Source: Nitrosopumilus sp. (GTDB lineage: Archaea > Thermoproteota > Nitrososphaeria > Nitrososphaerales > Nitrosopumilaceae). Taken from it: a stretch of DNA of 64,000 nucleotides. Positions 59 to 54,224 of the stretch are shown here, in pieces; position 1 is the first letter of the stretch; each line of letters starts with the position of its first letter. Position numbers and translations under genes: made by a program. The stretch spans positions 192,001-256,000 of the forward strand of contig OZ252243.1 of NCBI GenBank assembly GCA_965249555.1, read 5' to 3'. Under the pieces are notes generated by a model that saw nothing but the letters and a program-made list of their open reading frames with translations, searched no databases and was not told the DNA's origin.

Positions 59-955
59 CTATGTTTGTCGAGGTAAATGCGTAGAGGTAGTAATAGATAC
101 AATGAAACTCTCAAATATTTTTGTGTTATCGGGTCCTTGGTTCTTCAAATGTATTATTGAGCGAACATATAATTCCCATACCCAATACCATAATTCAGAA
201 TGTAAATCAATTAATTCAACATTTAGTTTTAGGATTTCTTTGGCTTCTTTGTGATTTATTACCTTTCCGTGTGATTTGTATGTCTTTCCATCAGATAACC
301 ACTTTGCAACATTCTCTGCTTGTTTCGGATTTTCTTTTAACATGTATTTTGAGAGCCAATTTTTTGCAAAACATTCTGCATCAGCTATTGCAGAAGTACA
401 TATAGAAATTATTTCAGGTCGTACTTTTTGTAACATTGATAGATACATGTTTGGAGGATCACCTGCTTTTACGTTCTTTCTTACCATTTCCAATCCGTCA
501 ATAAAAGAACGTGCAGGTATTAGAGGATCTCTCAGCAATGATATTTGTGGATCAATCGGACCTAATTCTGCAAGATATCCCATCATGATTTTATCCGATC
601 CAAGGCACATCATTGTTGCTGCACTTTTTGCAAAATTTGGAACAATCACAGTAAAACTTTCAGTGAACCTTTCTCTGCACATAGAAAGTAGTTTTTCTGC
701 AGCGTTACCACTACCTCCAGAAGAGTTTAAAATCAAAATTCCTTTCTTAGAATCTCCAGTAGAGCGCAATAGATCTTCAAATGGAATTACGTCGTCATTA
801 TTAATAGCTGCATATGGATGTTCAGGATTTGCAAAATAACATATTACTTTACCGTTTAACTCGTCTTCAATTAATTTGATTAACTTTTTACGAGTTATGT
901 GATCATTTTCATTTAAAATTGATGTAAAAATTGGATCTGTAATTATGTCTTTCAT
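59..955 (-). CDS. SDH-family Clp-fold (SppA/ClpP-like) serine protease
   Basis: LILNSSGGSGNAAE, VPNFAKSAATM (catalytic Ser), LGPIDPQ (Asp), YKSHG (His). Confidence 0.85.
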   Translation of the reverse strand: MKDIITDPIFTSILNENDHITRKKLIKLIEDELNGKVICYFANPEHPYAAINNDDVIPFEDLLRSTGDSKKGILILNSSGGSGNAAEKLLSMCRERFTESFTVIVPNFAKSAATMMCLGSDKIMMGYLAELGPIDPQISLLRDPLIPARSFIDGLEMVRKNVKAGDPPNMYLSMLQKVRPEIISICTSAIADAECFAKNWLSKYMLKENPKQAENVAKWLSDGKTYKSHGKVINHKEAKEILKLNVELIDLHSELWYWVWELYVRSIIHLKNQGPDNTKIFESFIVSITTSTHLPRQT

Positions 956-1101: not shown

Positions 1102-1325
1102 GTTATAGTTATGTTAAACACCTAAATAAATAAATTTCCCAGTCCAAAATTTTTATGTTAGATCTATTACTTAGGCTCTCCATCTTTCAAGATATATAAC
1201 TATATGTGAATACCAAAAGAAGGAATTCAGATAGCATAGGAAATGAACCCAGGTCCAGGAGTCGTAATCCATCGTCCTCAAAGAAAAAGCCAAAGAAACA
1301 GATTAGGGCAAAAAAAGACAAGTGC

Positions 1326-2321
1326 ATGTATGTTGGCATTGACTTGCACAAGGAATTTCTTCAAGTAGCAACAATGGATAATGACGGAAAGATATTACAA
1401 AACATAAAAGTTGAGAACACTCATGAATCAATCAGGAAACATTTTACAGACATACCAATTCATGCAAACATTGTCATGGAATCATCATCAGTCTGGTATA
1501 ACACGTATAGATTTCTTACAGATGAATTAGGATACAAAAACGTGACACTCTCAAACCCATATCTTACAAAGGCAATAGCTGCATCAAAAAAGAAGACAGA
1601 CAAGATTGATGCCAAGATACTGGCAGATCTTTTGCGTGGAGGATACATTGCAACATGCTATGTTCCAAACAAAAAGATAGTAAAACATCGCCAGCTGGTA
1701 AGATACAGAAAAAAACTCGTTCAGTGGAGGACCTCTCTCAAAAATTCTGTCCATGGAATTTTGTTACAGGAGGGAATCAAGATACCTGGAGTCACGTTCA
1801 CTGTAACATACAACAGAAGACTCGCCTCCCTAGGTGACTATCGCATAGACGGATTCGTACGACAGATAGGCCATATCAATCTGCAAATTGCAGAGATTAA
1901 TTCAAGAGTGTATGCTGCCGTAAAGACCAGTCCTGATGCCATGATAATAAAATCAATGCCCGGAATTGGCGATTACTCGGCACTAGTTATTGCAGCAGAA
2001 ATTGCAGGTATTAGCAGATTCAATGACTCTCACAAGTTATGCGCATATGCAGGAGTCGTGCCATCAGTTAGAAACTCTGCAGACACGATACACCATGGCA
2101 GCATAACCAAAAGGGGAAGCATGACACTACGATGGGTTCTCATCCAATGCGTCCATACCCATGCACTGCATGACAAGAACAGTGACATTACAAAATTTTA
2201 CAATCGCATTAAAAAGAAGAGAGGCTCATCAAAGGCCGCAGTTGCCGCATCATCAAAGATCCTGCGAGTGATTTACTGGATGCTAAAAGAGAGGAGAGAA
2301 TTTGTACAGAATTACAGTTAG
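1326..2321 (+). CDS. IS110-family transposase/recombinase
   Basis: MYVGIDLHK, VMESS, KKTDKIDA (DEDD RuvC-like), MPGIG..SALVIAAEI, YAGVVPSVRNSA (Ser), ITKRG; start placed at ATG 1326 rather than GTG 1206. Confidence 0.95.
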   Translation: MYVGIDLHKEFLQVATMDNDGKILQNIKVENTHESIRKHFTDIPIHANIVMESSSVWYNTYRFLTDELGYKNVTLSNPYLTKAIAASKKKTDKIDAKILADLLRGGYIATCYVPNKKIVKHRQLVRYRKKLVQWRTSLKNSVHGILLQEGIKIPGVTFTVTYNRRLASLGDYRIDGFVRQIGHINLQIAEINSRVYAAVKTSPDAMIIKSMPGIGDYSALVIAAEIAGISRFNDSHKLCAYAGVVPSVRNSADTIHHGSITKRGSMTLRWVLIQCVHTHALHDKNSDITKFYNRIKKKRGSSKAAVAASSKILRVIYWMLKERREFVQNYS

Positions 2322-2490
2322 GACTGCAAGTCGCGTTTTATATGTTGAGGGAAAGCCTCGGTTAATAACTGCGGATAGGTCCTAATAAAGGGATGAAGAT
2401 AGCATTGAGGAAGAAGCCTCGTATGGATACATGTCCGTCATCTTTTGATTGAAAGCATTCCCTAGCGAAAGCTATGCCTTGGGATGCAAA
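2318..2490 (+). ncRNA. Candidate bridge/seek RNA of the IS110 element
   Basis: Two parallel stem-loops capped by GAGG-loop-CCTC hairpins, each followed by 7 nt + AC; loop sequences match the element junctions; third GAAA-capped hairpin 2455-2487. Confidence 0.7.
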
Positions 2491-2563
2491 AAAGTAGGAA
2501 ATGTTTAAAAACAATTCACATGGATACATATAATCTGCAAATAAAATAATTATTTTGTAGAAT

Positions 2564-5308
2564 ATGAATCCCGAAGATAAAGCCCGTCAGAATATTGATA
2601 AAATGCTGATTGATTCAGGCTGGATTATTCAAGACTATGAGAATAGAAATCTCAGTGAAGGATTGGGGGTAGCAGTTAGAGAATACCCATTAAGTAAAGA
2701 TAATGCAGATTATGCCCTTTTCATTGATTCACAGCCAGTTGGGGTGGTTGAGGCAAAAAAATACGGACATACACTTAGCGGTGTAGTTGAGCAATCCGAA
2801 AAATATCTAGATGGATTATATGAAAAATTTGTCAGTACTCCCATAAGACCTCCATTTTCCTATGAAACGACTGGTATTGAGACTAAATTTGCAGACAGGC
2901 GTGATCCTGATCATCGTTCTCGTTATGTCTTTACATTTCATAGACCCGAATTACTACAAGAGTGGTTACAAGAAGACAAGACATTGCGTGCAAGACTAAA
3001 ACAGATTCCCGAATTAAATTTTGAAAAACTTTGGGACTGTCAGACTGAAGCAATCATAAATTTAGAGGACTCACTTTCACAAAACAAACCACGTGCATTA
3101 ATTCAGATGGCAACAGGTTCTGGCAAGACAATCACAGCAGTAACTTCAATTTATCGATTAATTAAATTTGCAAAAGCAAAAAAGATTCTATTTTTAGTTG
3201 ACAGGTCAAATTTGGGTAGACAAGCGTTACGTGAATTCCAACAGTATGAAACACCTGATGACGGTAGAAAATTTACTGACTTGTATAACGTACAACTATT
3301 ACAATCACACACAATTGATCCTGTTCCAAAAGTTGTAATCTCTACAATTCAAAGAATGTTTTCAATTCTAAAAAATAATAAAGATTATGAGGATGAAAAT
3401 GATGAATTTTCATCATTTGAAGATTCACAAGATGCGACTCCAGTTGAAGTACATTACAATGAAAATATACCAATTGGAGAATTTGATTTTATCATAATTG
3501 ATGAATGTCATCGTTCAATCTACAACAAATGGAAGCAGGTATTAGATTACTTTGATTCATTTTTAATTGGATTAACTGCAACCCCTTCAAATGATACTGT
3601 GGGATTTTTCAACAACAATCAGGTAATGAGATACACCCATGAAAGAGCTGTAGTTGATGATGTTAATGTTGGATATCACGTATACAGGATTAAAAACAAA
3701 ATTGGGGAGCAAGGAGGCACTATAGATGCAGGTCAATTTGTTGAAAAAAGAGACAGACTCACGCGGAAATCTGAGCAAGAGTATCTGAATGAAGATCTAA
3801 TTTATACACCAAGTGACCTTGATAGGTCAGTAGTAGCAAAAGATAGCATCAGACTAATTATTAGAACATTCAAGGAACGGTTATCTGAAATTTTTCCAAA
3901 CAGGACTAATGTTCCTAAAACCCTGATTTTTGCAAAAGACGACGCTCATGCAGAAGATATTACAGAAATTGTAAGAGAGGAATTTGGACTAGGAAATGAA
4001 TTTTGCAAAAAAATCACTTATCGTACAAAAGAAAAACCAGAGGAATTAATTACCTCGTTTAGAAATTCACCAATGCCCAGAATTGCAGTAACAGTTGACA
4101 TGATTGCAACTGGAACTGACATCAAACCATTAGAATGCATTATTTTTATGCGAGATGTCAAAACAAAGAATTACTTTGATCAAATGAAAGGAAGAGGGAC
4201 CCGAAAGATAGCAGATGATGATTTGATTGCAGTTACTCCTGATGCCAAAGCCAAAACTCATTTTGTCATAGTTGATGCGGTAGGCGTTTGTGAGCATACA
4301 ATGACTGACACTCACTCTTTATCTAAAAAACCAGGTGTTTCTTTCAAAGTATTGCTGGATAAAGCAACTGACAAAAATGCAGATGCAGACGATGTTGAGA
4401 GTTTGATTTACCGATTGTCCAGACTGAACGGAAAATTAAGTCAGGACGATAAAGATGAAATAAGCAATGCAAACAACGGAAAAACTCTGACAGATATTGA
4501 AAAAACATTGCTTGACGGAATTGACGCAGACAAGACACTAGAAAAAGCAAAAGAGCAGTGTCATACAGAAGAGCCAACAAATGAGCAGCTTAGAACTGTA
4601 TCAAAACAGATGATTGATGAAGCATGCAAGGTATTTGATTCGGCAAAACTACGAAAGACAATCCTTGACATCAAAAGCAAAAATGAGCAAATCATTGATG
4701 ATGTATCCATTGACGAATTGCTAGAAGCAGGATTTGTAGATAAAGTACAGAATATTGATAAAAAGACAGTTGATAACTGGATTGACTTTGTAGAGAAAAA
4801 TAAGGATCGAATTATAGCACTTGACATCATCTACTCCAAACCATATAGGATGAGAGAAATCACATTTGCAGATATTCAGAATCTGGCCAGTGCAATTGAG
4901 AAACCCCCGTATAATTTGACTCCTGAAATGCTTTGGAATGCATATCAGAGACTGGATAAATCAAAGGTGAAAAACAATCCCGCCAAAATGCTGACTGATT
5001 TGATATCTATTGTACGATATTCTGCAGGAAAAGAAGAATCATTATTGCCGTTTTCAGAAATAATTACAGAGAAATTTGAAAAATGGTTAACTGCCCAAGA
5101 ATCTTCTGGACGAAATTTTACATCAGAGCAAAAAGAATGGCTTGTAATGATTAAAAATACTATTGCAAGTTCTGTCTCAATTGGTATTGATGCACTAGAC
5201 GATGTGCCATTTAATCAGAAAGGTGGCAGAGTAAAGTTTTATGAAATATTTGGAGATGACTATGAAAAGATATTAGAGGATCTGCATGAGGCTCTGATTA
5301 ACCAATAA
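2564..5308 (+). CDS. hsdR: Type I restriction enzyme R subunit (EcoEI/EcoAI-like)
   Basis: ADYALF..VVEAKK nuclease motif, MATGSGKT, IIIDECHRS, GLTATP, QMKGRGTR. Confidence 0.93.
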   Translation: MNPEDKARQNIDKMLIDSGWIIQDYENRNLSEGLGVAVREYPLSKDNADYALFIDSQPVGVVEAKKYGHTLSGVVEQSEKYLDGLYEKFVSTPIRPPFSYETTGIETKFADRRDPDHRSRYVFTFHRPELLQEWLQEDKTLRARLKQIPELNFEKLWDCQTEAIINLEDSLSQNKPRALIQMATGSGKTITAVTSIYRLIKFAKAKKILFLVDRSNLGRQALREFQQYETPDDGRKFTDLYNVQLLQSHTIDPVPKVVISTIQRMFSILKNNKDYEDENDEFSSFEDSQDATPVEVHYNENIPIGEFDFIIIDECHRSIYNKWKQVLDYFDSFLIGLTATPSNDTVGFFNNNQVMRYTHERAVVDDVNVGYHVYRIKNKIGEQGGTIDAGQFVEKRDRLTRKSEQEYLNEDLIYTPSDLDRSVVAKDSIRLIIRTFKERLSEIFPNRTNVPKTLIFAKDDAHAEDITEIVREEFGLGNEFCKKITYRTKEKPEELITSFRNSPMPRIAVTVDMIATGTDIKPLECIIFMRDVKTKNYFDQMKGRGTRKIADDDLIAVTPDAKAKTHFVIVDAVGVCEHTMTDTHSLSKKPGVSFKVLLDKATDKNADADDVESLIYRLSRLNGKLSQDDKDEISNANNGKTLTDIEKTLLDGIDADKTLEKAKEQCHTEEPTNEQLRTVSKQMIDEACKVFDSAKLRKTILDIKSKNEQIIDDVSIDELLEAGFVDKVQNIDKKTVDNWIDFVEKNKDRIIALDIIYSKPYRMREITFADIQNLASAIEKPPYNLTPEMLWNAYQRLDKSKVKNNPAKMLTDLISIVRYSAGKEESLLPFSEIITEKFEKWLTAQESSGRNFTSEQKEWLVMIKNTIASSVSIGIDALDDVPFNQKGGRVKFYEIFGDDYEKILEDLHEALINQ

Positions 5309-53902: not shown

Positions 53903-54224
53903 GAGATTCATTTAGTTCTAACGTTGGAACAAAAAACTTGGCATTCTATAGTGAGGATAAGATGGAAAAGAAAACTGGAACAATGGGAATAACGATCGTA
54001 TGTATCAAGCACTTTAGATGTATTCTATCATTTCAGAAAACATGTTCAATCCCCTAGTTGTATGATGATTTTTTCATGACCACAATCTGACATGTTTTAT
54101 ATGATGATTTAGTTGATCTTAGATCTTTTTGTGTAATGGTATTGATTTGTGCGTAAAGGTTGATACATACTAACGATCAAACTTAATACTGTGAAATTCA
54201 AACTAAATACCTCTAGGTGTAATC

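Follow-up and report, generated by a model that had tools for sequence, protein, structure and literature searches.

An IS1111-type element of a Nitrosopumilus-like archaeon with a probable two-loop guide RNA that varies with its insertion sites

Results

The DNA analysed here is a 64,000-nucleotide stretch (the window, G000:C1:192001-256000) from a Nitrosopumilus-like archaeon whose genome is a single contig of 2.23 Mb. Between a gene for a ClpP-like SDH protease (59-955, minus strand) and one for a type I restriction R subunit (2564-5308), the window carries an IS110-family insertion sequence (IS) of the IS1111 type, which occupies 1199-2526 (1328 bp) and is one intact copy of a multicopy family. 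The inserted sequence reads ACTATATG...CATGGATA, and all of its features described below lie on the plus strand. It holds a recombinase gene and, in the non-coding DNA downstream of that gene, two similar stem-loop modules that probably form a guide RNA.

The extent of the element is set by its other copies. A BLAST search of 1150-2580 against the same genome returned 44 high-scoring segment pairs including the self-match, and hence some 43 copies or fragments besides the one in the window. Full-length matches number about nine, at 90-95% identity, and many others are truncated copies or solo ends. Across the 21 left and 29 right ends that align, similarity begins at 1196 and ceases at 2530, which bears out to within a few bases the 1199-2527 proposed in an initial annotation of this DNA. 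A GATA common to the element and its target leaves the boundary free to shift by up to 4 nt. Subterminal inverted repeats of 8 bp, ATGTGAAT at 1204-1211 and ATTCACAT at 2514-2521, can be read directly 5 nt from each end; relatives keep the left repeat as (T/C)ATATGTGAA and retain the right one. Relatives were found at 77 loci, at 45-86% protein identity, in Nitrosopumilus, Cenarchaeum and Nitrosopumilaceae assemblies, which speaks for an archaeal origin of the DNA.

The recombinase has 331 amino acids counted from the ATG at 1326 (gene 1326-2321, open reading frame 1206-2321). It matches PF01548 (DEDD_Tnp_IS110, N-terminal, 6.9e-25) and PF02371 (Transposase_20, C-terminal, 7.2e-21), both over their curated cut-offs, and residues 2-324 match the NCBIfam equivalog NF033542, 'IS110 family RNA-guided transposase', with 225 bits against a cut-off of 140. 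The top matches among solved structures were the IS621 transposase 8wt6 (E 2.9e-11) and ISCro4 (9t56). Residues D6, E52, D92, D95 and S251 align with D13, E62, D104, D107 and S243 of 8wt6_A, which would correspond to the published D11/E60/D102/D105/S241 provided that the chain has two extra N-terminal residues. The C-terminal motif reads GVVPSVRNSA (S-A). A 373-codon open frame is intact in three copies, namely the window copy and those at genome positions 709482 and 282860. Upstream of the ATG the frame stays open for 40 codons, to a GTG at 1206 (371 aa from there), and the added codons are very basic and of low complexity. Non-coding DNA amounts to 127 nt upstream of the gene (1199-1325) against 205 nt downstream of it (2322-2526), and the guide modules lie in the downstream part.

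RNAalifold, run on an alignment of 19 sequences (the window copy, one other copy from the genome and 17 sequences from relatives), returned five helices with 26 pairs, in which 99.4% of 493 cells are standard pairs; with the partners slid by 1-3 columns, 31-45% of cells pair. Double-sided (compensatory) changes occur in 10 of the 26 pairs, a count reached by 0 of 500 shuffles. The first module, putatively target-binding (2317-2386), is built from P1 (2317-2324/2379-2386), P2 (2331-2335/2370-2374) and a hairpin, P3 (2346-2350/2356-2360). The consensus P1 covers 2317-2322/2381-2386 and is lengthened in the window copy by 2323-2324/2379-2380. These three helices are 97-100% paired, with compensatory changes in 7 of 16 pairs, and the minimum free energy (MFE) structure of the window sequence agrees with the consensus. 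In the second, putatively donor-binding module (2391-2436), P4 (2391-2395/2432-2436) is 100% paired with zero double-sided changes, and the hairpin P5 (2406-2410/2417-2421) has compensatory changes in three of five pairs. The two modules are near-identical: in each, an internal loop separates a basal helix from a UGAGG/CCUCG hairpin. The internal loops are 2336-2345 plus 2361-2369 (loop 1) and 2396-2405 plus 2422-2431 (loop 2). We estimate the RNA at about 120-130 nt, from about 2317 to 2446, in which case it would overlap the stop codon of the recombinase. An Rfam scan of 1000-2800 assigned no family and gave only two chance matches (E 6.6 and 9.6).

Two parallel stem-loops had been read here in the initial annotation, and every string that it quoted lies at the coordinates it gave: the outer stems TTAGGAC (2318-2324)/GTCCTAA (2379-2385) and GATGA (2392-2396)/TCATC (2438-2442), TGAGG...CCTCG at 2346-2360 and 2406-2421, GTTAATA-AC (2361-2369), TATGGAT-AC (2422-2430), and AC at 1199-1200 and 2526-2527. 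As structures the two stems fared differently, the first forming part of the consensus fold and GATGA/TCATC being one of two possible basal helices for its module.

Sequence differences among copies are concentrated in loop 1. In 20 copies from this genome, nucleotide diversity is 0.334 in the loop-1 5' strand (TTTTATATGT, 2336-2345) and 0.379 in the variable part of the loop-1 3' strand (GTTAATAAC, 2361-2369), against 0.000 in the TAAC that ends the 3' strand, 0.000 in both strands of loop 2 and no more than 0.136 in any other region. The 5' strand is complementary to the top strand across the core A and right flank (2526-2533), and the 3' strand has the same sense as the left flank followed by TA and AC. 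In the window copy, TTATATGT (2338-2345) is the reverse complement of 2526-2533, an 8/8 match between the 5' strand and a right flank that contains the right target half CATATAA (2527-2533). Elsewhere in the genome, the reverse complement of the 5' strand matches its right junction over 11 nt at 282294 (ACAATCATAAC); matches of 10 nt also occur among these copies (ACATACAAAA), with 10 nt matched by the copy at 533489, and six more copies match over 7-8 nt. Overall, of 21 copies with both a guide and a right junction, nine match over at least 7 nt and two over 6 nt. On the other side, the 3' strand repeats the left flank at 9/9 positions at 709346 (GTTGATAAC) and at 8/8 at 283438 (TTTTTAAC). 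Each of the three copies whose recombinase frame is intact matches its own flanks. Relatives behave alike: matches cover 10/10 positions in L039 (ATGATTCATA) and 9/9 in L021 (ATAAATTTT), nine-nucleotide matches are found in L092 (AGTTGTCTG), L065 (ACGCATAAA) and L055 (ATGTGTTTA), and left flanks are matched at 9/9 in L022, L024, L033 and L079.

To set these matches against chance, the data were grouped by distinct arm (31 right and 16 left arms) and the flank groups were permuted 2000 times. The mean longest exact match was 6.29 on the right, compared with a null of 3.98 (sd 0.19, max 4.8), and 4.49 on the left, compared with 2.87 (max 3.9); 0 of 2000 permutations reached the observed value on either side. 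The matches between arms and flanks are far beyond chance, and loop 1, hypervariable from copy to copy, follows the flanks, such that the guide changes together with the insertion site. Covariation of this kind across homologous elements had been envisaged in the initial annotation. Natural loop-1 variants, of which the genome contains ten, include TTATGATTGT/TTTTTTAAC. When 30 sites were collected with a strict right-end pattern, 22 of the 30 right junctions had at least 6 nt of contiguous complementarity to any of the ten guide variants, versus 3.6% of random TA|C sites.

Loop 2 shows no variation within this genome and, across relatives, covaries with the ends of the element. Its 5' strand (AAGATAGCAT, 2396-2405) contains an ATAG (2399-2402) that is complementary to the left-end CTAT (1200-1203), its proposed pairing partner, and its 3' strand (TATGGATACA, 2422-2431) has the same sense as the right end ATGGA plus TA; neither strand varies among the 20 copies. 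More generally, the 3' strand, (T/A)AT(G/A)GATA, repeats the right end CACAT(G/A)GATA, and the G/A at its fourth base agrees with the right end in 88 of 88 elements (63 G/G and 25 A/A), with the state switching between close relatives such as L068 and L097. The 5' strand reads ATAG in 33 elements with the left end AACTATATG and ATGG in 12 with AACCATATG, a concordance of 45/46 that amounts to a compensatory pair (AACT versus AACC).

The flanks themselves point to a specific target. Twelve of 21 left junctions fall in an IS66-family element, which has about 47 ends in the genome and whose terminal inverted repeat accounts for a 33-nt sequence seen beside seven copies. This host element is multicopy and about 1.42 kb long (for example G000:C1:80043-81464, locus L108 44-1464), with a 442-aa open reading frame (DDE_Tnp_IS66, PF03050, 4e-41), imperfect terminal repeats GTATGTATCAACC.../...GCTT(A/G)ATACATAC and an 8-bp target duplication, which is TTCTGGAA in the L108 copy. 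One end of an IS66-family copy also lies inside the window, at about 54138-54170 (minus strand). Uninterrupted IS66-family tips read ..GGTTGATACATAC or ..GTGCTTGATACATAC, and occupied sites read ..TTGATA-AC-TATATG...CATGGAT-AC-ATAC. The genome has 62 uninterrupted instances of TTGATACATAC and none of TTGATAACATAC, from which it follows that insertion adds ACTATATG...CATGGATA, window 1199-2526, and that GATA is common to donor and target. The element thereby enters between TTGATA and CATAC without a long target duplication, having 4 nt (GATA) in common with its right end. As judged from sequence, the preferred target of the family is the tip of the IS66-family terminal inverted repeat and not simply the 'AT-rich' DNA of the initial annotation. 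The window copy itself sits in a look-alike site, GATATA-TA-CATATAA, and has the matching base in its right guide.

Discussion

We interpret this locus as an intact IS1111-type element of the IS110 family whose 3' non-coding end encodes a bispecific two-loop guide RNA, a reading to which we assign a probability of about 85%. The initial annotation had arrived at the same kind of element and guide, which the multi-copy alignment, covariation and permutation results uphold; the AC/GT core that it proposed is not supported. On the model of IS621 and IS1111-type seekRNA elements, this element would leave as a circle and re-enter by DEDD/Ser recombination, with an order of strand exchange like theirs. 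The recombinase (1326-2321) would bind, and be guided by, a transcript of about 120-130 nt whose template directly follows the recombinase gene and overlaps the stop codon of that gene. The 3' loop strand of module 2 would match the right end, and the short ATAG stretch of the 5' strand would pair with the left end. Donor and target would have a common core, most likely TA inside GATA, and the usual target would be ..TTGA-TA-CATAC, the tip of the IS66-family terminal inverted repeat.

The same architecture can be drawn with an AC/GT core, a target gatatata-AC-atataatc, a circle catggat-AC-tatatg and AC duplicated at both junctions, as the initial annotation had it. AC does stand at positions 8-9 past the hairpin in both 3' strands of the window element and at both junctions, and the loop-1 5' strand in this element's family ends in GT beside the hairpin. 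The register of empty sites nevertheless makes an AC core improbable. Uninterrupted paralogous targets are TTGATACATAC and never TTGATAACATAC, and insertion at an AC core would yield TTGAT-AC-TATATG where TTGATA-AC-TATATG is observed. Furthermore, the empty site GATCAAC-TA-AATC (GATCAACTAAATC), which has AA where the occupied left junction has AC, becomes CAACTA-AC-TATATG once occupied; because this site lacks AC, the left AC must belong to the element. Seven site families have paralogous empty sites, and TA is at the joint in six of them. The RNAs of relatives agree: TA is invariant in both 3' strands, 2 nt from the basal helix, the bases that follow differ between the loops, and the loop-2 3' strand has TA-TG, TA-AT, TA-CG and so on rather than AC. 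The TA of the empty sites and its invariance in both RNA loops lead us to read the core as probably TA (inside GATA), with AT or ATA as alternatives. The left copy of this proposed core would be 1197-1198, the last two bases of the left target half ..GATATA-TA, and the right copy, placed from occupied versus empty paralogous sites, 2525-2526. The predicted circle junction is then CATGGATAACTATATG and the predicted empty site of the window copy GATATATACATATAATC; an AC core implies the junction CATGGATACTATATG, one A fewer, and the empty site and circle junction of the initial annotation are each probably one base off.

Two further explanations reduce the role of the RNA. Module 1 could be the sole guide, resembling a short seekRNA, with module 2 a structural or terminator hairpin and the ends recognised by the protein through the subterminal inverted repeats. 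An 82-nt seekRNA of ISEc11 that bears the target matches is reported to be sufficient for movement (PMC11187229); in the element studied here, the loop-2 5' strand pairs with just 4 nt of the left end and the oligo-T run comes after module 2. We consider this unlikely since 7 nt of the right end plus the core recur in the loop-2 3' strand, the G/A of this strand follows the right end in every one of 88 elements and switches between close relatives, ATAG/ATGG follows the left end with a single exception, and both loop-2 strands are constant in copies whose loop 1 varies. Alternatively, the non-coding end might guide nothing at all, and the arm/flank matches might reflect chance in AT-rich DNA or duplication of the element together with its flank. 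The genome is indeed AT-rich, the left match of the window copy is short, and the consensus flank ACATAC is common to 17 of 30 copies. Against this stand the permutations over distinct arms, none of which reached the observed matches on either side, the concentration of variation in exactly two loop strands, and the fit of non-consensus guides to non-consensus flanks (AC-AATCATAA, ACATCTAAA and ten different targets in relatives), which together leave such an origin with hardly any credibility.

Several observations weigh against the guide-RNA interpretation or its details. No orthologous empty site of the window copy was found among 30 relatives. The hsdR gene downstream of the element is present in two of these 30 (about 80% identity), and because the upstream regions there are unrelated, the empty site of the window copy is deduced from the paralogous sites of other copies. 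Contigs of four sequencing runs contained neither a circle junction nor an empty allele; they span both junctions of the occupied site, and no joint skips the element or unites its ends. (One contig of one run has an 807-nt skip inside the element, which counts neither for nor against.) A metagenome scan for a right-end/left-end junction gave 43 loci, none with the non-coding end of the element upstream; these resemble unrelated inverted repeats and are uninformative on the circle. A search for RNA runs containing the element sequence returned none. The basal helix of module 2 has two candidates, P4 or the more distal stem 2392-2396/2438-2442, which the MFE structure of the window uses and which duplexfold forms in many relatives. 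The left guide of the window copy matches its left flank at only 6/9 positions, four of them in the constant TAAC, and, of the 21 copies that have a guide as well as a right junction, 10 show no match to their own guide longer than 5 nt; as 22 of 30 junctions fit some guide in the genome, such mismatches are explainable by insertion with the RNA of another copy in trans, or by later decay. Pairing between the loop-2 5' strand and the left end extends over only 4-5 bp, and L066 is the sole exception to their covariation. The seventh site family, CTGA-TC-ATATT, fits an AT core better than TA. Finally, the covariation counts come from related sequences and overstate the independent events, whose number is small.

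A broader picture combines three features: a living repertoire of naturally retargeted guides in one archaeal genome (ten variants, in copies 90-95% identical, with diversity about five-fold or more concentrated in the two guide strands), a lifestyle of inserting into the tips of other ISs, and a possible opposite-strand handshake when compared with IS621. As a joint proposal this is tentative, and we hold it at slightly less than even odds. With respect to the handshake, the bottom-strand guides extend 2-3 nt beyond the TA core into recombination-product sequence: the loop-1 strand continues with AC(T), the first left-end bases, and the loop-2 strand with CA(T), with which the usual right flank begins. 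For the loop-2 3' strand this reading fits the window family, L055 and L068/L097, and fails in L021, L023, L039, L066 and L092b; it is a low-probability reading of that strand.

The kind of element and its mechanism are already known, and no new mechanism is involved: archaeal IS110s, right-end RNAs of IS1111 elements and IS-rich Nitrosopumilus genomes are all on record, and NF033542 would name the protein an RNA-guided transposase. In the literature, 662 archaeal IS110 recombinases have been counted (bioRxiv 10.1101/2024.06.21.599552), IS-rich Nitrosopumilus genomes are described (PMC13343696), bridge RNAs are predicted in the right end of 93% of IS1111 elements and the subterminal inverted repeats of IS1111 are 7-17 bp long (Durrant et al. 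2024, PMC11208160). Likewise, IS1111-type seekRNAs carry the top-strand target match 5' of the bottom-strand one, and IS1111-type elements retarget naturally by a change of guide (Siddiquee et al. 2024, PMC11187229). Literature on IS110 in Nitrosopumilus and on archaeal IS1111 bridge RNAs yielded, in article listings and passages of the text, no description of the RNA reported here; supplementary data may already list such elements.

The element resembles ISEc11, ISPa11 and ISKpn4, IS1111 elements with a 3' seekRNA, in its long non-coding region downstream of the recombinase gene and shares with IS1111 elements (PMC11187229) the subterminal inverted repeats, two short target matches that overlap at the insertion point in the same strand order, and natural retargeting. 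Unlike the IS1111 seekRNA elements compared, it has an archaeal host and two clearly parallel modules, the second covarying with both element ends, and its ten guide variants are found side by side in a single genome, in copies of 90-95% identity. The C-terminal motif of IS1111, given as GL-P----S(t)G (SG, TG, occasionally TA), differs from the S-A found here. With IS621 (Durrant et al. 2024, PMC11208160; Hiraizumi et al. 2024, PMC11208158) it has in common a DEDD RuvC-like domain plus a Tnp domain, a serine nucleophile with aligned residues, a bispecific RNA in which one loop serves the target and the other the donor, and a 2-nt core common to donor and target. In contrast to IS621 (PMC11208160), the RNA lies in the right end rather than the left and strand order within each loop is reversed. 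The RNA is also an estimated 120-130 nt, the core is probably TA where IS621 has CT, right-donor pairing spans just 4-5 nt, and the protein similarity is remote (E about 1e-11). Another IS110-family element, cited in PMC11208160, is likewise reported to have the terminal inverted repeat of another transposable element as its natural target. In the present case the host element is an archaeal IS66-family insertion sequence and, in relatives, also the left end of a sister IS110 subfamily.

What the element adds is the compact two-module RNA and the combination of hypervariable, flank-matched guides within one genome, an invariant donor loop and the targeting of the tips of other ISs, which makes this family a clean natural example of guide retargeting. 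Bridge and seekRNA recombinases are under development as programmable DNA-insertion tools, and this compact archaeal system, whose protein has 331 aa and whose guide of about 120-130 nt is built from two almost identical modules, may be of use in that context. The initial annotation had called the element potentially reprogrammable, for which the natural variation of its guides is the support available. The many natural guide/target pairs could also yield rules on which positions are programmable and which are fixed, the fixed ones here being TAAC in loop 1 and GATA in loop 2. The family further illustrates how such elements spread in IS-rich ammonia-oxidising archaea, where other insertion sequences would serve as safe landing sites.

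Additional features and observations

Several features of the right end beyond the two modules are conserved. The oligo-T run at 2443-2446 follows module 2 and, in 17 sequences from relatives, is T4 in ten, T3 in three and absent from four; it may be an archaeal terminator and mark the 3' end of the RNA. Further downstream lie a small hairpin with a GNRA-type loop, TAGC-GAAA-GCTA (2463-2474), with a conserved CTAGCG-NNA-GC block (TAGT-GTAA-ACTA in L066), and an outward-facing TATA-like box, TTTAAAAA (2504-2511), about 12 nt before the right inverted repeat, for which TTTAAAAA, TATAAAAA or TTATAAA is found at the same offset in relatives. Both features are present in the right end of all relatives inspected and might represent, respectively, a third RNA element and a junction promoter. 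In a circle, the TATA-like box would lie about 26 nt upstream of the left-end start and the GTG at 1206, and it could drive the recombinase across the junction; such an arrangement could let recombinase and guide be transcribed as one RNA. At the present site the box points at the type I restriction R-subunit gene (ResIII, EcoEI_R_C, HSDR_N), which begins 37 nt past the element; the element is also downstream of the SDH protease gene.

Some copies have an unusual structure. Seven start exactly at the equivalent of window 2016 (for example G000:C1:2219668, 2075544, 1839073, 1584120, 57115 and 1558715), and six of the seven have about 75-140 nt of unrelated upstream sequence in common. These look like a chimeric element, with a different 5' part in front of the last 512 bp, which span the recombinase C-terminus, the guide RNA and the right end. 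According to PF01548 matches, the genome also contains a second IS110-family lineage.

At seven left junctions (94803, 1239984, 1247674, 1854327, 2071119, 2194383 and 2210591), 31 nt of the IS66-family repeat are followed by GC rather than AC, and the right flanks of these copies do not continue the IS66-family repeat. This pattern suggests that one old insertion at a secondary site (AAATCAA-TA-TCATTAC) was later rearranged, or else that these copies were mobilised together with the IS66-family element. In five Nitrosopumilus loci (L032, L068, L069, L086 and L092), two IS110 subfamilies meet, the right end of one adjoining the left subterminal repeat of the other (..TTCACAT(G/A)GATATGTGAATAA..). 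The inserted subfamily has a guide (complement ATGTGAAAA/ATATGAAAA) that fits this left end, from which it appears that one subfamily targets the end of its sister.

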